From the NCBI GenBank assembly GCA_016218805.1, contig JACRCW010000081.1, forward strand, positions 1 to 64,000: 64,000 nucleotides of DNA. The letters run 5' to 3'. The notes beneath the pieces were generated by a model. It ran no database searches, had not been told where the DNA came from, and saw only the letters and a list, made by a program, of their open reading frames with translations. Position numbers and translations under genes: made by a program. Shown one piece after another: positions 3,163 to 15,567 of the stretch (the first letter of the stretch is position 1; the number at the start of each line of letters is the position of its first letter). This stretch comes from Deltaproteobacteria bacterium. Lineage in GTDB: Bacteria; Myxococcota; JACRCW01.

Positions 3163-4176
3163 TCACCCCAGGCCCATCTTTTCCATCACGCGTGACAGCG
3201 GGTAGTCCGTCCGCCGCGCCGCCGCCGCCGCCAGCAGCGCCTTCTCGTGGTTGTTCATCATGGGGTCGCCGCGCAGCACGGCGTCCGGTTGGGTCTCAAT
3301 GCGCCGCAGCAGTTCCGAATACACGGTAATGATGAGGCATAGGATGAATGCGCAGTCCCGCGCCATGTCCGGGTAGCGTGCCTCCGCCATGGCCACGCCG
3401 CGCGCTTCCATTTCATGCGCGCGTCCACACAGGTCCACCACCAGCGCGCGCCACGCCGCGGTGCCCTCGCCGCGGCGCAGGATGTCGCGCAGCGTGGATT
3501 CGGAAAGGCCGTGTTTCTCCATGTCCGCCAACGACAGGTACACCAAGCCGGACTGCCCCACGGCCATGTCCTGTTTCACGTCACGCAGGATGTGGGCCAG
3601 GTACGCAAACAACCCGAGTTCCCGGCCGCACGTCTGAAAGTCAAAGGCGTGCACGCGGTACACGCCGTCGTCGTCGCGCATGGCGGCGAGCAGGTAGACG
3701 TAGATGATCGTGGGCGCCACGGTGGCGCCTTCGCCGTATTGCAGGAATTCCGTGAAATCCCTGAACCGCGGATGGTCCACGTCAAACCGCATGGCGTCCA
3801 CAAAGTTCAGCCACACCTGCAACGGCACGGGGAAGGTGTGCGCGGCCGCGGCCAGCGCCAGGTCCACCGGGTCCTCAGACGGGTGGCCGTCATACGCCGC
3901 GCGGATGCGCTGCTCCCAGCGGTCCAGTTCCTTCTGCAGCCCGGCGCGCGCGCCGGCAGACGCCAGCGCCTTGTCCGGCACGTTGTCAATGAAGTCGTCC
4001 ACCAGCCGCATCACCGCGTACATGGCAATGAACGCGTCATAGCGGGCGCGGTCTTCAAAGAACTGGCTGGTCACGTACAGGTTGCTGCGGTCCTTGGCGG
4101 CAATCCGCTCACACACCTCCAGGGCGGCCTTCATCCGCGCCGCGTCCACGCCCGGGAGCCTCAACTGCGTCTTCAC
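3163..4176 (-). CDS. Squalene/phytoene synthase family protein
   Basis: First Asp-rich motif MRLVDDFID, AMRFD, second motif LAHILRDVKQD, G.VYL. The GTG start overlaps the upstream stop (GTGA). Confidence 0.85.
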   Translation of the reverse strand: MKTQLRLPGVDAARMKAALEVCERIAAKDRSNLYVTSQFFEDRARYDAFIAMYAVMRLVDDFIDNVPDKALASAGARAGLQKELDRWEQRIRAAYDGHPSEDPVDLALAAAAHTFPVPLQVWLNFVDAMRFDVDHPRFRDFTEFLQYGEGATVAPTIIYVYLLAAMRDDDGVYRVHAFDFQTCGRELGLFAYLAHILRDVKQDMAVGQSGLVYLSLADMEKHGLSESTLRDILRRGEGTAAWRALVVDLCGRAHEMEARGVAMAEARYPDMARDCAFILCLIITVYSELLRRIETQPDAVLRGDPMMNNHEKALLAAAAARRTDYPLSRVMEKMGLG

Positions 4177-5465
4177 GCCGTCACCTCCGCACCATCCGCA
4201 CCGCCCGCCGCGCCGCGCACGGCCGGCCCGCGCGTGAACAGCGCCCGCAGGATTCCCGCCGCCCCCACGACGTCATGGCGTGGTGCCGCGTGTCCCAGCA
4301 ACGCCAGGAACGCCCACCGCATCCCCGGGTGCGCGCCACACAGCGCCACCGCGGCCCGCATCAACGTGGCGCGCGCGTGCAGCCGCTGCAGCCGCTGGCC
4401 CAGCGCGGCCTCGCCCAGGAACGACCGCCGGCAGCGCGTGTCATATTCCGCCAGCGCGGCGCGCGACACGTCACCGGCGGCGAGCGCGTCATGAAGCACG
4501 TCCCCCGCGTGGCCGCCCGCCATCAACGCGTGGTGGATGCCGTGGCCCGTGAACGGGTCCACCATCGCCCCCGCGTCCCCCACCAGCAGCAGCCCGTCGT
4601 CAACAATGCGGCGGTTCTCGCTGGTGCCCGGCAGAGACCAGCCCTTGAGCCGCGGCACCTCCAGGCCTGCCAGGCGTTCCCGGAACAGCGGCACCTGCTC
4701 GCGCACTTCATCAAACAACTGCGCCGGCCCTTTCCCGATGCGCTCGGAGTCCGCCTTGATGATGCCCACTCCCACGTTCCATTCGTGGTCACCCACGGGG
4801 AGAATCCATGCGCAACCGGGCAGCGTGCGCTCCGTGGTGAAGATCTCCAGGTACGGCTCCGGCAGCATCCGCGGGCTGTGCACGTACGCGCGCGCCGCCA
4901 GGCACAGGTGGTCCGGGTGCTGGTTGAACAGGCCCACGCTGCGCGCCACCGAGCTGGTGGCGCCGTCCGCCCCGACGACGGCGCACGCCTCCATGCGCTC
5001 TACCGTTCCGCCCGGGCGGCGCACGTCCACGGCCGCCACCACGCCGTTGCCGTCACGGATGACGCTGCAGCCTTCGTGACCTTCCTGCACCTCCGCGCCC
5101 GCGGCGCGCGCCTGTTCCAGCAACCAGTGGTCCAGCACCTCACGCTTGATGATCCACCACAGGCGTTGGGCCCCCGCGCCGTCACGGAACATGCCGTGCA
5201 CTTCGGTGCCGCCGGGCGCCACGTAGCGGCTGCCCGTGCACGCGTACCCGCGCGCGCGCAATTCCTCCCACGGCAGGCCCAGGGCGCGGATTGCTTCCTG
5301 CGCCTCGGGCAGCACCACGTCACCGCACACCTTGTCACGCGGGAACCGCTGCCGGTCCAACAGCACCACGCGGCGGCCACGTCGCCGCAGCGCAATGGCC
5401 GTGGCCGACCCGCCCGGCCCTGCGCCCACCACCAGCACCGGCTTTCCCGGGTCCAACGTCGCCAT
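4173..5465 (-). CDS. Geranylgeranyl reductase family FAD-dependent oxidoreductase
   Basis: VVGAGPGGS, FPRDKVCGD, VVGADGATS and LLVGDAGAMVDPFTGHGI motifs. Start re-called at ATG 5465. Confidence 0.85.
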   Translation of the reverse strand: MATLDPGKPVLVVGAGPGGSATAIALRRRGRRVVLLDRQRFPRDKVCGDVVLPEAQEAIRALGLPWEELRARGYACTGSRYVAPGGTEVHGMFRDGAGAQRLWWIIKREVLDHWLLEQARAAGAEVQEGHEGCSVIRDGNGVVAAVDVRRPGGTVERMEACAVVGADGATSSVARSVGLFNQHPDHLCLAARAYVHSPRMLPEPYLEIFTTERTLPGCAWILPVGDHEWNVGVGIIKADSERIGKGPAQLFDEVREQVPLFRERLAGLEVPRLKGWSLPGTSENRRIVDDGLLLVGDAGAMVDPFTGHGIHHALMAGGHAGDVLHDALAAGDVSRAALAEYDTRCRRSFLGEAALGQRLQRLHARATLMRAAVALCGAHPGMRWAFLALLGHAAPRHDVVGAAGILRALFTRGPAVRGAAGGADGAEVTA

Positions 5466-5728
5466 GCCACTCCCGCGCCCCGCTTCCAGGGGGCCGCGCA
5501 ATCCAACGTGCCCGACGGGGGAAGTCAAGCCGCACGCGCGGGGCCCCTAAGCGGCGGCGGTCCGCACGGGTCCACGACGGGATGACGCGTTGCGTTGCCC
5601 CGCCTGGCAACGGAGTTCCCGGAGCTTCTTCCTGACGGGACACCGTCCTGGAGCTTGAACTGCGCGCCGGCCGGGCGCTAGCAGGGCGCCGCGACGTCCG
5701 CGACCGCGCGGACACACGGAGGAAATGC

Positions 5729-6621: not shown

Positions 6622-7911
6622 TCAGGCGGCCGCGGCGGCGCGCTCCATGCGGCGCGCCCCCGTCCACAACAGCACGGCAGCCACGGCGCACGCCGCGGGG
6701 CACAGCAGCAGCGAATAGCGCATCATGCTCGGGTCGGTGGTGACGCCCAGCGCGTCGCTGGTGCGGCCAATGGCCACCGGGCCGATGCCGTACCCGATGA
6801 CATTCACCACGAAATAATACACGCCAATTCCGAGCCCGCGCAGCTGCGGACCGACGACGTCCTGCACATCCGCCGCGGCCGCGCCCATCCAGCTGAGGGC
6901 AAAACCCATGGCCACGAAATACGGGATGATCACCATCCAGAAGCTGCCCGCCGCCAGCATGGCGAACCACAGCGGGATGCAGATGGCCGCGCACATGGCC
7001 GAGAAGCGCATGCGCCCGCCGGCCCAGCGCTTGCGGAACGCGTCCGCGCCCAAGCCGCCCAGCACGCTGCCGATGAGGCCGCCCACCGCTGCGCTGAAGC
7101 CGGTGTAGCCGCCCACCTCGGCGAGGTCCATGGCGAACACCTTGTGGATGAACGACGGAATCCACATGGACAGCGCCTGCCCCGCCATGGCGAAGAACGC
7201 GTACCCGAAATAGTGGAACCGCAGCGTTCCCGACGACAGCACCACCTTCCACGCATCCGGCGGCGCCCCCGTGGCCGGCTTCTTCTCGGTGCTGCCGCGC
7301 ACCGGCTCGCGCACGAACAGTACGAGCACCGCGAACAGCAGGCCCGGGAAGCCGAGCAGGTAGAACGCCCAGCGCCAGCCGAACTCCCGTTGGATGAGCC
7401 CCCCGACGGTGAGTGCGACGCCCGCCCCAATGGGCACACCCGCGGTGAAGATGGCCGCCGCGGTGGCGCGCATGCGCGTGGGGAACAGGTCCGCCAGCAG
7501 CGACAGCGCCGCGGGGCCCAGCGTGGCTTCGCCCACGCCGACCATCAGGCGGCACAGGAAGATGCCGGTGAAGGACTCCATGAATCCCGTGAGACCGGAG
7601 AACACGCTCCAAATCACCAAGCCCACCGCAATCATCTTCTTGCGCACCACGCGGTCCGCCAGCCGCCCAAACGGCACGCCCAGCAGCGTGTAGAAGATGA
7701 CAAACGACGTGGATCCCAGCAGCGCGAGCTGCGTCTCCGTGAGCGCCATCTCCTTCTTGATGGGGCCGAACAGGATGTAGATGAGCGTGCGGTCCAGGAA
7801 GTTGAGCAGGTAAACGGTGAACAGCACCGCCAGACCGTACCAGCTGGAAGCGGGGATTTTCTCGTCGGCCGCGGGACCCGCAGCCGGACCATCGTTCAGC
7901 AGCAACGCCAT
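6622..7911 (-). CDS. MFS transporter (spinster-like)
   Basis: LLNFLDR, MFS motif A GRLADRVVRKK, RLMVGVGEA and LLADLFP, with about 12 hydrophobic segments. Start re-called at ATG 7911 (GAGAGG RBS, 10 nt after the upstream stop). Confidence 0.88.
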   Translation of the reverse strand: MALLLNDGPAAGPAADEKIPASSWYGLAVLFTVYLLNFLDRTLIYILFGPIKKEMALTETQLALLGSTSFVIFYTLLGVPFGRLADRVVRKKMIAVGLVIWSVFSGLTGFMESFTGIFLCRLMVGVGEATLGPAALSLLADLFPTRMRATAAAIFTAGVPIGAGVALTVGGLIQREFGWRWAFYLLGFPGLLFAVLVLFVREPVRGSTEKKPATGAPPDAWKVVLSSGTLRFHYFGYAFFAMAGQALSMWIPSFIHKVFAMDLAEVGGYTGFSAAVGGLIGSVLGGLGADAFRKRWAGGRMRFSAMCAAICIPLWFAMLAAGSFWMVIIPYFVAMGFALSWMGAAAADVQDVVGPQLRGLGIGVYYFVVNVIGYGIGPVAIGRTSDALGVTTDPSMMRYSLLLCPAACAVAAVLLWTGARRMERAAAAA

Positions 7912-7921
7912 GGGGAACCTC

Positions 7922-8788
7922 TCAGAGGGAGAGCCGCCAGACCTCGTGCGCGGAAGTGAAGGAATCAGGAATGGTGTCAGCCAGGCGGCCCATGGGCGAA
8001 ATGACGCGGGCCACCTCGCCCAGGCACTCATGCACCCAGACGTGCGTGACCTGCTGCGCGTCACCGGCGACCAGCGTGCGCCGCAACCGCACCGTCACGC
8101 GCAGCGTGTTCTCCAGGATCATGTCCGGGAGCACCAGGGTGCCGCGGCCGGTCACGCGCACGTCGTAGATGTCGGACAGCGCGGTGGTGAGCCCCAGCAG
8201 CACCGCGTTGGAGGCGCGCGCCGTCGTGGTGACGTGCGCGTCTTCGCGCAGCGGGTATGGGTAGAGCGTCACCGGCACGTCGTAGACCAGCAGGGTGCGG
8301 CCCTCCGCGGGGTCCTGTTCGGCGGAGGCGCTGCCCAGCAGGTGCACGCCCGCGTCATCAATGCGAAGCGGGCCCAGCAGCCGGCCGCCCGGTGTCAGCG
8401 GCCCCGCGTAGTCCGCCTGCGGGAAGGAAGGCGCGAACCACTGGTTCTCCAGCGTCTGCAACTCCAGCCGCGCCAACGGCTGGGAATCGGGCAGCGGGGT
8501 GGAGAAGTCCCAGCGCCGGATGCCGGTCTCATCCACGTAGCCATCCACGTCCACGTCCATGGGACCGGAGCCCACTCGGATGCGCGCCACCGCGCCCAGG
8601 ACAAACGGCATTTCCTGGCGTTCAATCACGCCGTCGTTGTTGGGGCGGCAATCGGGCGCATTGACGGGTGAGACGTATGAGTCGTCCTCGCGTGCGGGGG
8701 CGGGCTCGCAGCCGTAGGGCGCGCCCGCCACGCAGCCTGCGAGCACCGTGGTGGACAACCAGACCAATTGCCGGGATTCACCTTGCAT
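7922..8788 (-). CDS. Lipoprotein of unknown function, paralog of 11482..12489
   Basis: Lipobox VLAGC. Shares WDF, WF..(F/Y)P.A.Y, LLG.AS, (Y/F)PL, D.Y, LRV, C.G.V..V.S and F..A.E..RL.L with the paralog. Confidence 0.75.
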   Translation of the reverse strand: MQGESRQLVWLSTTVLAGCVAGAPYGCEPAPAREDDSYVSPVNAPDCRPNNDGVIERQEMPFVLGAVARIRVGSGPMDVDVDGYVDETGIRRWDFSTPLPDSQPLARLELQTLENQWFAPSFPQADYAGPLTPGGRLLGPLRIDDAGVHLLGSASAEQDPAEGRTLLVYDVPVTLYPYPLREDAHVTTTARASNAVLLGLTTALSDIYDVRVTGRGTLVLPDMILENTLRVTVRLRRTLVAGDAQQVTHVWVHECLGEVARVISPMGRLADTIPDSFTSAHEVWRLSL

Positions 8789-10502
8789 AGGCCAACCTCA
8801 CCAGGACCATCTGCGCCATGTTGGGCGCGTGCGCACCGCGTTGGCCGAGCCCGCCCATGGGGAACAGCACGCCGCCGTCCACCCGCGCGGAAAACGCGCC
8901 CATGGCCATGGAGATGGCCGTGTCCAGTTCCAGTCCCAGCGGCGCCACGCCGCCGGGCGCAGACCGCGGGCTGAGCGCGTGGCTGTAGACCGCGTTCCAC
9001 TCAAAGCGCACGCCCTTGATGGGAGATAGCGCGAGTTTACCGCGCGCGTACGCCGCCTCAGACACGCCGCCCAGCAGCGTGCGCCACAGGATGAGGTCCA
9101 CGCGGTACATGGGGTGGAAACGGAAGGAATCAAACCGCGTGTCGTGCGCGCCGTCCAGCTGCGGACCAAACACGTCACCGGGGCGGGAGCCCACAAACGC
9201 ACTGGCATCCTGCTGCGGAAAGCCGGGCGCGGGATCCGGCGTGGCAAAACCCGCTTCACCGAGAATGCCCAGGCGGCCCGCCAACGGCAGCCATTCACCG
9301 ACGAGAACGCCGCCCAGCGGGTTGCCGTACACCGGCCGGCGCAGCTCCACGCCGGGATACGGCGACGGATTGCCGATGCGCAGCGCGCTTGCGACCACTT
9401 CAGCCTCAATGCGGATCTCCTTCCACCACAGGCGCACCCACCCGTCCGCCATGGCCGCTGTGTACTGCCGACGGACCTGGTCAGTGCGGTTCCATCCGCT
9501 GGAGGCGAGCGCCTGGTAGAAGACGGGGCTGTCCATCACCTGGAATTGCACGGAAACGGCGGCGCCGTAGTCCAGCACCCAGCCCTGCAGCCAGCTGCGG
9601 CGGCGCAGCATGTCCACTTCCCACGGTGCGCGGTAGCGCAGGAAGGCCACGCTCAGCGCCTGTTGCGCGGCAGCGGGGCTGAACGGCTGCGGCCCCCCGG
9701 CAACGACGGGCGCGCGCGGCCCGGAAGCGGAGATGTCTGCAGCCGCCGCGACGAAATGACCGAGAAAGGGCATCACCCAGGCGATCCGATCGGCGCGGTC
9801 GCCGCCGTCGTCGTCAAGATCGTCCCCCGCGTTGGCGGCGATGCCGAGGCCGAAGTGCGTGGGGGCGCGGCCGGCGGAGACCACGCCGAGCGGCGTGAGC
9901 ACTTCACCGACGGCGGTGCGGACGCGGACGGCGCTGGCGGGATCCTGGAACGCGGTGCCGGCGACGATCCCAGTACGACCGTTGTACGGCGTGCCGCGCG
10001 GCGTGGAGCCCAGCGTGAGGTTGTCCAGCAGGTCCACTTCCAGGTGGAAGCGGACGTCATCACTGAACCAGATGCTGGGAGCGAGACGCGCGCGCAGGTC
10101 TGCGCCGGCGGTGAGGTCCAGCGGGGTGTCACCCTTGGGCCACAGCGGTTTTCCCGTGGAGGGGGAGACACCGCGGTCAAGGTCCAGGTTGCCATACAGG
10201 GCACCGCGGACGCGCAGGCTGCCGCGCAGGTCCAGCATTTCGCCGGGTTTATGATCGCGGAAGGGTTCGCCGGGGTCACCGAACCCAACGCGCGCATGGG
10301 CGTTGGGTGCAAGGAGGAGCACCGCTGCCACCGCGTAGCCTCCCACCTTGTGGGGGAGGCGGCGAGCGGTGGGGGGCGGCGAGCGGTGGCGGGCGCGGGT
10401 CAATTCACGGGTATTCGGTGGGTCCAGCCCCCCACCCGCCTCGGCGCTTCGCGCCTCGGCGACCTCCCCCACGCGGGGGGAAGTGACGCGGTGGGCGCTC
10501 AT
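8778..10502 (-). CDS. TIGR04551-like myxobacterial protein, predicted outer-membrane beta-barrel
   Basis: G.LRVR..L..NLDLDRG, DLLDNL.LGSTP, GR.P.HFGLGI.AN.GD..D.D, FRFHP.YRVDLILWR and LG.ELD motifs, recalled from TIGR04551-family proteins. Alternating beta-strand pattern. ATGA overlap with the upstream stop. Confidence 0.7.
   Translation of the reverse strand: MSAHRVTSPRVGEVAEARSAEAGGGLDPPNTRELTRARHRSPPPTARRLPHKVGGYAVAAVLLLAPNAHARVGFGDPGEPFRDHKPGEMLDLRGSLRVRGALYGNLDLDRGVSPSTGKPLWPKGDTPLDLTAGADLRARLAPSIWFSDDVRFHLEVDLLDNLTLGSTPRGTPYNGRTGIVAGTAFQDPASAVRVRTAVGEVLTPLGVVSAGRAPTHFGLGIAANAGDDLDDDGGDRADRIAWVMPFLGHFVAAAADISASGPRAPVVAGGPQPFSPAAAQQALSVAFLRYRAPWEVDMLRRRSWLQGWVLDYGAAVSVQFQVMDSPVFYQALASSGWNRTDQVRRQYTAAMADGWVRLWWKEIRIEAEVVASALRIGNPSPYPGVELRRPVYGNPLGGVLVGEWLPLAGRLGILGEAGFATPDPAPGFPQQDASAFVGSRPGDVFGPQLDGAHDTRFDSFRFHPMYRVDLILWRTLLGGVSEAAYARGKLALSPIKGVRFEWNAVYSHALSPRSAPGGVAPLGLELDTAISMAMGAFSARVDGGVLFPMGGLGQRGAHAPNMAQMVLVRLAYAR
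10338..10484. repeat. 147-bp REP/CIR-like double-hairpin palindromic element, in frame within the 5' end of the TIGR04551-like gene
   Basis: Terminal hairpins GCCTCCCACCTTGTGGGGGAGGC (10338-10360) and ACCTCCCCCACGCGGGGGGAAGT (10462-10484). Inner inverted arms GCGGTGGGGGG / CCCCCCACCCGC, and a GGCGCTTCGCGCC mini-hairpin. Confidence 0.65.
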
Positions 10503-11485
10503 GGCGTGGCGCTCCCGGCGGCGGGCGTGGTGGTGCGCCGCTCGCGCGCCGCCCGTGACCGATCGATCTTTCCGAGCAGTTCCTCGACGATGCGGATGAC
10601 GGCCTGGGGTCGCTCCCACAATGGCACGTGCCCGCACGCGGGGAGCACCTCAAACCGCGCGCCATCCACCAGTGCGGCCAGTTGCTTCCCCGCCGCCAGC
10701 GGCGTGACGCGGTCATCCTCGCCCCAGATGATGACGGAGGGCAGACCCAGTTCCCGGTACCGCACCTGGTCCGGGCCGTAGTCCATGCCGCGTACCACGT
10801 TCAGCAGCGCATACAGACTCCCCGGTCTGAGCGTGTTTCCGCGGAACTCGTCTATTGCATCCGCATTGGCAAACCGGCCGCGGTCATGGAACGCAAGGAT
10901 GTACTTCTCTCCAATGACCTCCTTGAATTGCGTGGAAAACACAAACTCCCCGAGCACGGGAACCTTGGCCCAGCGGAACGCGGACGGGAGCTGCTCGTCC
11001 ATGGCGAATGCGTCCACAAGGATCAGCCCACCCCACCGCTCCGGGTCGTCCAGCGCGGCGCGCAGCACCACGCCGCCGCCATAGCTGTGCCCCACGAGCA
11101 CCGGCTTCACCAGTCCCAGCTTGTCGGCCAGGGCGCGGACGTCGCGCGCATGCGCCGCGGGTCCGTAGGCACCGCGGGGACGCTCGGACATGCCAAACCC
11201 GCGCTGGTCAAGGCTCACCACGCGGCGGTTCTCGGCGAGCGCGGGTTGCACTGCGGCCCAACTCTCCAGGCGGGACGCGTACCCGTGCACCAGCACCAGC
11301 GGTGTGCGGCCGGTGTCAACGCCGGAATCGCGCACGCGCACCCACGCGCCACCCAACTCCAGGAAGCGGTCCGTCGGCGGCGTGCCGCGTTCCAGCGCGG
11401 GTGCCGTGCGCGCATGCGGGCCGGCCATCAGCACACAGCCGCTGGCTCCCACAAACAGCGCTACGGCGCACGCAGCCCGGTTCAC
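10499..11485 (-). CDS. Alpha/beta-fold hydrolase, probable lipoprotein
   Basis: LVHGY, DQRGFG.S, nucleophile GHSYGG, WGEDD acid, CGH.P His. Lipobox-like ASGC. GTGA overlap with the upstream stop. Confidence 0.88.
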   Translation of the reverse strand: MNRAACAVALFVGASGCVLMAGPHARTAPALERGTPPTDRFLELGGAWVRVRDSGVDTGRTPLVLVHGYASRLESWAAVQPALAENRRVVSLDQRGFGMSERPRGAYGPAAHARDVRALADKLGLVKPVLVGHSYGGGVVLRAALDDPERWGGLILVDAFAMDEQLPSAFRWAKVPVLGEFVFSTQFKEVIGEKYILAFHDRGRFANADAIDEFRGNTLRPGSLYALLNVVRGMDYGPDQVRYRELGLPSVIIWGEDDRVTPLAAGKQLAALVDGARFEVLPACGHVPLWERPQAVIRIVEELLGKIDRSRAARERRTTTPAAGSATP

Positions 11486-12489
11486 GGTGGCAGCCCCAGG
11501 CGCCGCAGCTCCGCGGCCTGCGTGAAGACCACCTCGGCCTCGCCCTCCTGGCTGACCACCTGGGTCACCACGCCGTAACACGGCGTCATGAACGAATACC
11601 GCACCCAGTGGTAGTTCAGCGCAAATGGCCACACCGCGATGGGCACGCTGACGTCTTGCACCAACCGCACGCGCAGCGTGTGGAAGCTGCCCGCCGGTAC
11701 CAACACACGTCCCGCGGCATCCACGGTGAGCTCATAGGTGTCATTGGACAGATAGAACGGGTTTCCCTCCAGCGTGCCGGTGGTCTGGGTGGTGGTGCTG
11801 AAGGATACACCCAGCACCAGCGGGAAGCGCAGCACGGTCACCGGCGGCGTGTGCACCGTCCGCGTCACGTCCAGCGCCGCGCTCGCCTCGCCCAGCAGCG
11901 TCAGCTCCGTCGCCGTGCGCCGGTAGACCGCGTACAGCGTGGCCGCGCCGTCCAGCGCCACGACGTAGGTAGCCTCCGGGTAATGGTCCTTGAACCACAG
12001 CCCGTCCAGCGCCAGCGCGGACACCTCAATGGGACGGTCTCCCGGCACGGCGCCGGTGAAGTCCCACTGCACCGCGCCGGACGCCACCGTGCCCACCAGG
12101 TCCACCGCCAGCGGCCCCGCGTCCGCGGCCTCCAGAAAGCGCACGGGGACGCCCAGTGCCAGCGGCAGCTCCGCGGCGGTCAGCGTGTTGTCCTCGTCAT
12201 GCGGGCACGCGGCACCGGCGTCCGCCTGTCCGCCGTCATGTTGCGTTGCAGCATCAGGGGTGTTCCCGGCGTCCACGGATCCCCCGGCGTCCGGTGCGCC
12301 GCCCGCATCTGGGCTGCCGGCGTCCGTGCCGGTGTCATTGCGCAGGCAGCGGCCCCCGCGGCACACCAGCCCCACCGCGCACTGGTCATCCGCCGCGCAC
12401 TCCTTCTCCGTCGTGGGCGTGCATGCCAACGCCGCCGGGAGCGCGGCCACCGCCACCACCACCGCCCATCGCCGCCGCACGTCCGTCAC
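11482..12489 (-). CDS. Lipoprotein with a small Cys-rich module, a DAG-repeat linker and a domain paralogous to 7922..8788
   Basis: Lipobox ALAC, C..DDQC..G.VC..G.C, and PDAG repeats. Start re-called at GTG 12489 with a GAGGAG RBS. Confidence 0.78.
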   Translation of the reverse strand: MTDVRRRWAVVVAVAALPAALACTPTTEKECAADDQCAVGLVCRGGRCLRNDTGTDAGSPDAGGAPDAGGSVDAGNTPDAATQHDGGQADAGAACPHDEDNTLTAAELPLALGVPVRFLEAADAGPLAVDLVGTVASGAVQWDFTGAVPGDRPIEVSALALDGLWFKDHYPEATYVVALDGAATLYAVYRRTATELTLLGEASAALDVTRTVHTPPVTVLRFPLVLGVSFSTTTQTTGTLEGNPFYLSNDTYELTVDAAGRVLVPAGSFHTLRVRLVQDVSVPIAVWPFALNYHWVRYSFMTPCYGVVTQVVSQEGEAEVVFTQAAELRRLGLPP

Positions 12490-12515: not shown

Positions 12516-12544
12516 ACACTCGACGCCCGGCACGCCCTTGTCAA
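12516..12544 (-). promoter_or_regulatory. Candidate sigma70-type promoter for the lipoprotein/barrel/MFS operon
   Basis: Minus strand TTGACA, 17-nt spacer, then a weak -10 (GAGTGT), about 27 nt before the start codon. Confidence 0.3.
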
Positions 12545-12679
12545 CGCGCTTCCCATCCCTCATTGCTGCACTGCATCAAATACGCGGGAGGGGGCTCGGC
12601 CCACGTCGCAGCCGTGGCGGCGCGGGCGGGCCGTGATACGGTCACGGATATTGCTATGCAGCAACACGGAGGGCGGGGC

Positions 12680-14168: not shown

Positions 14169-15497
14169 TCACTTCCGGCGACGCATCAGCAGCCCGAGGA
14201 GCGCGAGGCCCGCGAGCATGCTCTCAGCACCGGCCGACGACGCGCACGAGGCGGGGAGGGGCAGCTTGGGGTTGCCTTCCACCTTGACCCTGAAGGTCTG
14301 CACGTCCTGCCGCTTGCCCAGCGCCTTGGGGTCGTCAAACACCAGCTCGCTCTCCAGGCGGATGGTGTATTCGCCCGGCTCCGTGGCCGTGAAGAACGGC
14401 GTCTTGTCCACGGTGTAGCGGTATTCCCACGGGCTGGAGAAGGTCACCGCACCGCGCGGGTTGCGCAGGCTCCAACCGCGGTTGCCGGCCGGGGACTCAT
14501 CCACGCTCCACGTGTACTTGATGGCCGTGTTGGCGCGGTTGGAGAACAGGCGCAGGCGCACCGGTTCGCCCGTCTGGACGGTGGCGTCGGGGCCGGGGCG
14601 CGCAAAGAACGGCGCCTCGGGATCCAGGCAGCGGCCCGCCGCGGGGGAGTCAATGGTGAAGCAGAACTTCGGGTCGCACCCGTCGCCCAGGCCGTCACGG
14701 TCACCGTCAGTCTGGGTGGGGTTGACAGCCAGTCGGCAGTTGTCCAGCTCGTTGGAGACGCCGTCGTTGTCCAGGTCGCTGTCGCACGCGTCGCCCATGC
14801 CGTCATGGTCTGCGTCCCCCACGTCCAGGCCGCCCAGGGTGGGGCAGTTGTCCAGGTTGTCGGGGATGTTGTCGCCGTCAGCGTCACGGTTGCAGGCCGC
14901 GCCCAGCGTGGTGGGGTCGGAGGAAAGCTGCTCGGGGTTGCGCACCAGCGGGCAGTTGTCGGACGGGTCCAGCCAGCCGTCGTTGTCGTCGTCGTCGTCG
15001 CACAGGTTGCCCAGGCCGTCGCCGTCGGCGTCATCGTCCGTGCCCTGGATGGGGTTGGGGAAGAGGATGCAGTTGTCCATCACGTTGGGAATGCCGTCGC
15101 CGTCCGCGTCATCGTCACACAGGTCGCCCAGGCGGTCGCCGTCCGCGTCGGTCTGCAGCGGGTTGCCGGAGCCGGGGCAGTTGTCGCACGCGTCGCCAAA
15201 GCCGTCGCCGTCGCCATCCGCCTGGTCACCGTTGTTGGAGAATGGGCAGTTATCAAAATCGTCTTCCCAGCCGTCGTTGTCGAAATCATCCGAATACTGG
15301 TAGGTGTCGCCGAGGTCGGTCTGGTTGATGAGGATGCTGCAGCCGCAGCCGCAACCGCAGCCGCCACCGCCGGTCTGGTTGGGAGTTCCGCAGAAACCAC
15401 CGGCGCACTCGCCGCTTGCGGACTGCGCGCTTGCCGCCGCCGGAGCCAACAGCACCAGCGCCGCGCCCACCGCCAACCACCGCATCATCGTTCCCAT
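14169..15497 (-). CDS. Thrombospondin type-3 repeat protein with a MYXO-CTERM-like sorting signal (MtsC-like cell-cohesion protein)
   Basis: Signal peptide, EC.G..CG.P...GGGCGCGCG N-terminal motif, and many DNCP...N..Q.D.DGDG.GD.CD repeats. C-terminal SC...LAGLALLGLLMRRRK. AGGAGG RBS. Confidence 0.85.
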   Translation of the reverse strand: MGTMMRWLAVGAALVLLAPAAASAQSASGECAGGFCGTPNQTGGGGCGCGCGCSILINQTDLGDTYQYSDDFDNDGWEDDFDNCPFSNNGDQADGDGDGFGDACDNCPGSGNPLQTDADGDRLGDLCDDDADGDGIPNVMDNCILFPNPIQGTDDDADGDGLGNLCDDDDDNDGWLDPSDNCPLVRNPEQLSSDPTTLGAACNRDADGDNIPDNLDNCPTLGGLDVGDADHDGMGDACDSDLDNDGVSNELDNCRLAVNPTQTDGDRDGLGDGCDPKFCFTIDSPAAGRCLDPEAPFFARPGPDATVQTGEPVRLRLFSNRANTAIKYTWSVDESPAGNRGWSLRNPRGAVTFSSPWEYRYTVDKTPFFTATEPGEYTIRLESELVFDDPKALGKRQDVQTFRVKVEGNPKLPLPASCASSAGAESMLAGLALLGLLMRRRK

Positions 15498-15567
15498 GAC
15501 CTGCCTCCTGGCTCGCGGACCGGAGCTGCCCGATCCTGGACCCGACGAAAGCACGGCCCGTGCCTGC

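Follow-up and report, generated by a model that had tools for sequence, protein, structure and literature searches.

The question raised by this locus is what a five-gene operon for predicted envelope proteins carries across the envelope, and in which direction. The locus lies in the first 64,000 nucleotides of contig JACRCW010000081.1 (positions 1–64,000; hereafter the window) of the deltaproteobacterial assembly GCA_016218805.1, coded G000 in our genome set. It comprises genes for a lipoprotein (lipA), an alpha/beta hydrolase, a barrel protein, a second lipoprotein (lipB) and a spinster-like permease of the major facilitator superfamily (MFS) (Table 1). An earlier note on this DNA had read them as a TonB-independent pathway that captures, hydrolyses and imports a hydrophobic, possibly prey-derived lipid. 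Capture, hydrolysis and import remain the best logic for these genes, but two features which that reading had overlooked, a linkage to pha genes and a PhaR-type operator, shift the probable substrate away from an unspecified prey lipid and towards fragments of polyhydroxyalkanoate (PHA) or acyl esters destined for PHA. We propose that a four-gene core captures, hydrolyses and imports PHA fragments from outside the cell for re-polymerisation, with a probability of roughly 45%. That the core serves import feeding PHA by either substrate, PHA fragments or fatty-acyl esters, we consider quite likely.

A conserved four-gene cassette

All five minus-strand open reading frames (ORFs) claimed in the earlier note show a coding-type bias in third-position GC content, and sequence inspection recovered the junctions described there: a GTGA overlap, an ATGA overlap, an 11-nt overlap and a 10-nt gap. 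Such overlaps suggest that the five genes are translationally coupled and co-transcribed. Scanning of the operon listed no sigma-70 promoter and no terminator at its end.

In a phylum sample of 401 Myxococcota genomes (tallies of 401 and 331 include one unpublished genome, G195), lipB matches were found in 70, mostly as pairs of hits about 3.3 kb apart. Neighbourhoods were analysed for 58 of the 69 module loci other than the window's own. The order lipA–hydrolase–barrel–lipB is kept in 53 of these 58 loci, representing 12 families, with a 2.4-kb insertion within one of the 53; four of the remaining five loci are truncated by contig ends, and one has no lipA nearby. The co-occurrence in other genomes that was anticipated for the operon holds for these four genes; they, and not all five, are the conserved unit, here called the module.

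A metagenome scan yielded 80 loci, comprising 58 with the module, 21 with a canonical TIGR04551 barrel and one unclear. Genome contigs scanned with the barrel alignment also gave 80 loci, all with the module, and setting aside 11 duplicates left 69; the barrel as a single-protein query against genome contigs returned no matches, although the alignment-based scan did find loci. Hosts in the genome scan include Polyangiaceae, Sandaracinaceae, Kofleriaceae and Bradymonadales records and the cultured Labilithrix luteola DSM 27648. An apparent barrel–lipB fusion (L102) looks like a frameshift, as do breaks at three other loci (L084, L091 and L099). The module is real, strongly conserved and apparently undescribed, and its mechanism is what we infer below. 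Literature searches, with most subscription journals outside their range, returned no description of the module or of the term TIGR04551; Tables S8–S9 of PMC11821767 may list its genes.

Linkage to PHA gene clusters

Genes of PHA metabolism lie near the module in 52 of the 58 loci. The neighbours encode PhaC-like proteins (52 loci, two of them weak, divergent matches), PhaR (45), an acyl-CoA ligase (44), PhaE-like proteins (40), phasin-like proteins (34; so labelled from size, position and sequence character, with no Pfam match) and a FabG-like short-chain dehydrogenase/reductase (SDR; 31), with MaoC genes in a few loci. The PhaC-like proteins score 149–281, where class III PhaC requires 365, and are thus divergent. 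The linkage is seen in all 12 module-bearing families and in at least five gene arrangements; a pha gene is present at 67 of the 69 genome-scan loci, and the 20 metagenome module loci of at least 8 kb include 18 with phaC and 17 with phaR. PHA genes in Myxococcota have been noted only recently (PMC11821767).

Eleven pha loci were inspected from genomes with no lipB match. Nine hold the same cluster minus the cassette, and two consist of a lone phaC. The nine module-less clusters keep phaR, phaE, the ligase gene and phaC (one in rearranged form), and since nothing stands between the adjacent phaR and phaE, the module is a cassette at the head of the pha operon. Counted per genome, a PhaC match occurs in 66 of 70 module genomes versus 117 of 331 others, related genomes not being independent. 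At two loci of one family (L072 and L081, f21), lipB is followed by a gene for a very divergent PhaC-like protein with a GYCG motif, in genomes without a class III PhaC match at 1e-25.

The import of PHA fragments is favoured because of two arrangements involving secreted depolymerases. In a genome of the same family as the window's (G011), a third lipA paralog, 50% identical to the window's lipA, is coupled by an ATGA overlap to a gene for a secreted type-1 PHA depolymerase (NF050058, 295.9, over the cut-off) that ends in a hydrophobic-basic surface tail. In L. luteola, the series lipA–hydrolase–barrel–lipB–phaE–ligase–phaC runs by an ATGA overlap into a secreted depolymerase gene (281.6 against a cut-off of 150). 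An operon-end depolymerase also occurs in four more module loci and in four of the nine module-less clusters.

A genome without the module (G115, L131:8417-13769) shows another arrangement: phaC is followed by three operator-like sites and four genes, whose products are a secreted depolymerase, a lipoprotein, a barrel-like protein of unrelated sequence and an alpha/beta hydrolase that is itself a lipoprotein. The arrangement may have arisen by convergence as another version of this logic. This second barrel was considered as a relative of the module barrel and rejected, being not detectably related (hhalign probability 0.2).

The assembly containing the window encodes a class I PhaC (689.6 against 622.65), a type-1 depolymerase (189.2 against 150) and one PhaR, all on other contigs. 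This PhaR (C155:48550-49146) has the gene context of a widespread paralog and no operator. Two PhaR paralog types are apparent in G000, G011, G021, G083 and G172, a widespread one without operator, which may have another role, and a cluster type with operators. As no pha gene adjoins the window's module and the partner cluster was not found in the 92%-complete assembly, the PHA link in this genome rests on orthology, the retained operator and the G011 locus, where the same five genes stand beside phasin–phaE–phaC.

The PhaR-type operator

A 17-bp palindrome matching the PhaR consensus of PMC6201568 and PMC12849132 precedes phaR, phasin and lipA genes across the loci. The copy upstream of the window's lipA is an exact match to the published YTKNTGCRNYGCANMAR (PMC12849132), and its 12-mer is identical to the phaZ3 site that PMC6201568 gives for Bradyrhizobium in its Table 2. 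The literature palindrome alone occurs at eight sites in the 6.4 Mb assembly; seven lie inside codon-biased ORFs, and only the window site lies outside.

We trained a position weight matrix (PWM) on 72 sites located more than 1450 nt upstream of the lipA stop, with a core pre-selected on the PhaR consensus, and set a threshold of 11. Sites at or above this threshold precede lipA in 28 of 31 loci in which lipA leads, in none of 13 in which it is internal, and in 5 of 394 coding windows; the tally drops nine of the 53 ordered loci, five without the anchor motif and four with less than 200 nt upstream. By PWM score the window operator ranks sixth genome-wide: six sites in the assembly score at least as high, two of them in this operon, versus one in the reversed genome. 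In the window, G011 and G037 the operator persists with no phaR next to it. The core genes are likely to form a PhaR-controlled envelope unit. At two loci (L268 and L269), operator-like sites stand directly upstream of each of the four module genes.

Predicted properties of the encoded proteins

The two lipoproteins are paralogs, as had been suspected (28% identity over 250 aa, E 2e-18). LipA is a predicted lipoprotein with a lipobox-like ALAC, a Cys-rich motif, a low-complexity tether and an all-beta domain of about 240 aa; no Pfam family was found for this domain, with only sub-threshold matches to DUF7107 and Myxo_Cys_RPT. The signal and Cys are present in most homologs, as judged by eye. 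LipB, likewise a predicted lipoprotein (lipobox LAGC), carries an all-beta domain in which two cysteines are invariant and one loop resembles an EF-hand, and the EF-hand matches of the lipoprotein profile in a PDB profile search are weak (E 0.001). Its AlphaFold2 model (predicted local distance difference test score, pLDDT, 95.8) is a curved beta-sheet whose best fold matches are only middling, namely 4fvs (Z 9.3, root-mean-square deviation (rmsd) 4.0, 170 aligned) and YmcC (Z 7.1), close to a background of 7–8. Foldseek gave no match for it at E<=0.001, the top row being YmcC at E 0.04; a likeness of the lipoproteins to YmcC/GfcB or DUF3108 proteins (Atlas 0.75) is a lead only. At E<=1e-10 the family counts 724 representatives, and in some of them the domain occurs in tandem. 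A dedicated search for fused, longer forms was empty, which is weak evidence, and tandem-domain forms of 562–892 aa did appear in other searches. Four proteins (P0121, P0122, P0123 and P0141) contain two or three tandem lipoprotein domains, hinting that the domain works in multiples.

The hydrolase, with a predicted lipid anchor, agrees with the Ser-Asp-His alpha/beta hydrolase proposed in the earlier note (Abhydrolase_1, E 1.8e-33): all 51 aligned homologs keep S134, D258 and H286, and a Ser-Asp-His triad in an alpha/beta fold is also what depolymerases possess. Its nucleophile box is GHSYG; x1 in the motif G-x1-S-x2-G is His in all 51, and 34 of them begin A-H-S. Most PHA depolymerases have a hydrophobic x1, AHSMG being a named exception, and a polar x1 is typical of lipases and esterases (PMC2666664). 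The His at x1 would thus argue against a classical polymer depolymerase and suit an esterase or oligomer hydrolase. No named family reached its cut-off among the 25 matches listed, and the best solved relatives of the hydrolase profile are generic, namely meta-cleavage hydrolases and esterases, with the polyhydroxybutyrate depolymerase 8ynv at rank 5.

The prediction of a membrane barrel is supported by an AlphaFold2 model with 18 strands (pLDDT 81.8, predicted template modelling score 0.84), and the missing plug domain in this model is consistent with the proposed TonB-independence. The barrel matched no Pfam family at E<=0.1, and hence not PF13372, and its profile had no match among PDB sequences. 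Conserved Arg residues lie on strands 1, 2, 4, 5, 6, 10, 11, 14 and 18, and Asp/Glu residues are also conserved on strands. Foldseek placed AlgE at the top (E 9e-15, template modelling (TM) score 0.54; FadL, 0.27), and the VIA Z-scores were 25.6 for MOMP, 25.0 for AlgE and 24.4 for OpdL. Since MOMP, AlgE and the Occ import channels tie within 1.2 Z, the fold gives no transport direction.

The label TIGR04551-like is justified by homology over the whole barrel, but the protein scores 264.3 bits against a cut-off of 300; a second copy in the same genome passes with 451.9. As 15 of 21 tested module barrels pass, the cut-off fails to separate the clades. In a tree from a quick search with midpoint rooting (a careful search did not finish), 30 module and 23 canonical barrels split with an SH-like approximate likelihood-ratio support of 100. 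The canonical copy occurs in 396 of 401 genomes at about 440–750 bits, forms a clade separate from the module barrels and often adjoins lysA, dapA or argH; neither module nor pha genes were present at 22 canonical genome loci or 21 canonical metagenome loci. The operon had been expected to give TIGR04551 a functional context, but the near-universal copy belongs to the other clade with housekeeping contexts, and only the paralog clade has the module. The canonical barrel of the window's genome (G000:C141:5541-7811, L123) is of a kind that is near-universal even in genomes of 1–2 Mb and may be a core envelope protein.

The permease is correctly described as spinster-like (MFS_1, E 1e-49): its best solved relative is 6e8j (E 6e-35), which we take to be a bacterial spinster homolog (the PDB title reads only 'Major facilitator family transporter'), followed by SPNS1 and SPNS2. 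It was also thought to be a core member and a clue to a lysolipid or sphingolipid substrate, and here the comparison disagrees: it follows lipB in one of the 58 loci, from the same family as the window, and elsewhere there are unrelated carriers or none. The spinster-like MFS is a lineage-specific addition. Other carriers at module loci comprise sodium:solute symporters (5 of 58), which are importers, another MFS (4 of 58) and a third MFS further downstream in seven. A spinster-like MFS (33%) lies nearby at one locus (L198); matches at two others (L333 and L339) were rejected as belonging to another MFS type (24–27% over 187 aa).

Proposed function and alternative explanations

According to the proposed import of PHA fragments, a secreted, surface-tailed type-1 PHA depolymerase would cut released granules, for example from lysed prey, to oligomers. 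LipA and LipB would hold the polymer or oligomers at the envelope, the anchored hydrolase would trim the oligomers, and the Arg-lined barrel would pass carboxylates without TonB. An interchangeable inner-membrane carrier, here the spinster-like MFS, would import the acids, an acyl-CoA ligase would activate them, and PhaC would re-polymerise them. The proposal draws on the gene order, its conservation, the place within pha clusters, the operator-like palindromes and the intact triad, together with the predicted lipid anchors and the predicted 18-stranded barrel. Bdellovibrio provides a precedent for predators degrading prey PHA (PMC4834554). We tentatively entertain a more specific version, in which a dedicated myxobacterial machine strips polyester from lysed prey and rebuilds it, using a new family of polyester-binding surface lipoproteins, an anchored oligomer hydrolase and a barrel paralog to supply, with no thiolase involved, a CoA ligase and PhaC; PhaR would control the whole, and this would be the first outer-membrane uptake of PHA fragments.

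Several observations weigh against PHA fragments as the substrate. Adjacency of a depolymerase is rare (5 of 185 module loci); genome-wide, a depolymerase is found in 49 of 70 module genomes versus 131 of 331 others, a modest enrichment that makes it a weak discriminator, and five of seven module genomes of one family (f4) have no match. At six of the 58 loci no pha gene lies close by. Most of the 31 lipA-leading loci share the operator region with a divergent phaR, and the operator may serve phaR autoregulation. PhaR derepression occurs as the cell's own PHA forms (PMC12849132), a timing that fits the handling of own polymer equally well. The hydrolase, its polar x1 being unlike that of most PHA depolymerases, falls far below the depolymerase cut-offs (NF050089, 76.3 of 300; TIGR02240, 40.4 of 250.6). 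The ligase, SDR and MaoC genes suit a route from fatty acids to PHA, and the best matches of the ligase are long-chain fatty-acid CoA ligases, all below cut-off. Such a route is part of a rather unlikely alternative, the scavenging of fatty-acyl esters into PHA, which is the earlier lipid-scavenging idea with the product ending up in PHA: a lipase or lysophospholipase at the surface or in the periplasm would release fatty acids, these would pass via the barrel, and a FadD-like ligase with a FabG-like reductase or MaoC/PhaJ hydratase would provide (R)-3-hydroxyacyl-CoA for PhaC. Besides the ligase, the frequent FabG-like SDR and the occasional MaoC, this alternative would account for the lipase-like x1 and the spinster-like MFS of the window, and in bradymonabacteria FadL has been proposed to play a key part in accumulating PHA (PMC11509652). 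However, the 18-stranded barrel resembles AlgE more closely than FadL, the lipoprotein fold is at best middling against LolA-type lipid carriers (Z about 5.5), the spinster-like MFS is rare, and the lipoprotein–depolymerase operon of G011 is left unexplained.

The opposite direction, export, appears improbable. Polyester or oligomers made by PhaC would leave through the AlgE-like barrel, guided by YmcC/GfcB-like lipoproteins, and the hydrolase would trim stray polymer, much as in synthase-dependent exopolysaccharide secretion. AlgE as the top Foldseek match and Alginate_exp clusters scoring 0.97 for the barrel in the Atlas, a feature-level likeness, favour export and add to the points just raised against import. 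The top row for LipB, YmcC, belongs to a capsule-export operon; the synthase gene is apparently co-transcribed with those for the hydrolase, the lipoproteins and the barrel, and where a cluster has two PhaC-like genes, each could take a separate task. An Alcanivorax mutant has been reported to release PHA by an unknown route (PMC7147478). On the other hand, neither an inner-membrane synthase nor a translocase is conserved at the loci, no synthase gene adjoins the module in the window, the tie between MOMP, AlgE and Occ channels leaves the fold neutral, and coupling to secreted depolymerases and sodium symporters points inward. It is very improbable that the window's module is a detached remnant or was re-purposed, with the partner cluster lost and the MFS serving another hydrophobic substrate. 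Cluster-type phaR, phaE, class III phaC and phasin were indeed not found in the 92%-complete assembly, which also tells against PHA-fragment import in this genome, and several copies in the window's barrel subclade likewise have no nearby pha genes. But every ORF is intact and the operator has been kept; the relative G011 has the same five genes in a pha context, and the assembly lacks 8% of marker genes.

The passage of PHA breakdown products across the Gram-negative envelope appears little studied, and the text of a 2025 review on PHA degradation contains no passage on uptake or transport (PMC11893044). The conserved, regulator-marked module offers named genes and a cultured host, L. luteola DSM 27648. 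If PHA fragments are indeed imported, the module would add a route by which carbon is recycled between prey and predator in soils, sediments and sludge, as well as a new family of proteins that bind polyester and a first functional handle on TIGR04551 barrels. Should export turn out to be right, the module would secrete polyester naturally and have biotechnological value.

Other features of the locus and its genome

The coordinates are collected in Table 1.

Table 1. Genes, operator-like sites and repeats discussed in the text; positions are those of the window unless a locus is named
Feature	Position	Strand	Remarks
lipA	12489-11482	minus	335 aa
hydrolase	11485-10499	minus	328 aa
barrel	10502-8778	minus	574 aa
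lipB	8788-7922	minus	288 aa
spinster-like MFS	7911-6622	minus	429 aa
PhaR-type operator, 17-bp palindrome	12563..12579		74 nt upstream of lipA start codon
weaker second operator-like site	12648..12664		PWM 9.5, under threshold 11; nearer divergent histidine-phosphatase gene
operator-like site in lipA linker-coding region	12238..12254		PWM 19.8, genome rank 5; coding, may be chance
lone TTGACA hexamer	12539..12544	minus	19 nt downstream of operator; no matching -10
two facing repetitive extragenic palindromic (REP)-type repeats	10328..10495	minus	in-frame insert in barrel signal-peptide region
lipA paralog and depolymerase operon of G011	L341:220-2856 (G011:C509)		behind two operators scoring 27.1 and 19.2

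A REP-type insertion, in frame, makes up the first ~55 codons of the barrel ORF. The repeat gives 22 hits on 13 contigs of the assembly at E<=1e-5 (e.g., C112, C164, C91 and C42) and forms a long predicted hairpin. Several homologous barrel genes show, by eye, similar insertions at the same place. No RNA element was listed for the locus.

The convergent dehydrogenase and upstream oxidoreductase genes of the window are not conserved neighbours across module loci; the upstream phosphatase gene appears not to be one either, although this comparison used an out-of-frame query. Further away, the window encodes an MtsC-type thrombospondin-repeat MYXO-CTERM protein (14169-15554, minus strand; 557 against a cut-off of 350) and, judged by eye, a geranylgeranyl-reductase-like protein followed by a squalene/phytoene-synthase-like one (3163-5528, minus strand). 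Elsewhere in the genome, a cluster resembling those for anaerobic benzoyl-CoA degradation was noted by eye (G000:C158:21600-28500).

Comparison with known systems

Class III PHA loci (phaEC, phaR, phaP) are the closest counterpart of the gene context: module neighbours match PHA_synth_III_C (best 281 of the 365 cut-off), PHB_acc_N and, weakly, PHA_synth_III_E, and the module operator equals the published PhaR consensus. The module clusters differ in that they also carry the cassette of envelope genes and a CoA ligase gene, and as a rule have two genes for PhaC-like proteins; thiolase is absent among the conserved neighbour families identified at module loci, and the window copy stands apart from any pha gene. 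The module has a point in common with extracellular PHA degradation, since in some genomes it, or a lipA paralog, is coupled to a secreted type-1 depolymerase. Bdellovibrio made no PHA under the conditions assayed (PMC4834554), whereas here uptake would feed a synthase.

In its proposed logic of surface binding, anchored hydrolase, channel, inner carrier and activation, the module resembles SusC/SusD of Bacteroidota, FadL–FadD and PETase–MHETase, but by the searches run the parts are not homologous. SusC is a 22-stranded TonB-dependent barrel with a plug and a SusD lid, and FadL is a 14-stranded barrel with a hatch domain. The module barrel is modelled with 18 strands and no plug, its TM score to FadL is low, and LipB is all-beta, so that neither a TonB-dependent barrel nor a SusD or FadL fold is present.

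In its predicted fold, the barrel compares with AlgE and OprD/Occ. AlgE-type systems include an inner-membrane glycosyltransferase synthase and a tetratricopeptide repeat scaffold, neither of which is among the conserved neighbour families identified. OprD/Occ channels have 18 strands with a basic ladder for carboxylates. The modelled module barrel shares with AlgE and OprD/Occ the 18 strands (Z 23–25, rmsd 3.2–4.0 A over 315–383 residues), and it has conserved basic as well as acidic residues on its strands; it differs in being only 6–13% identical to them and in travelling with two lipoproteins and a hydrolase.

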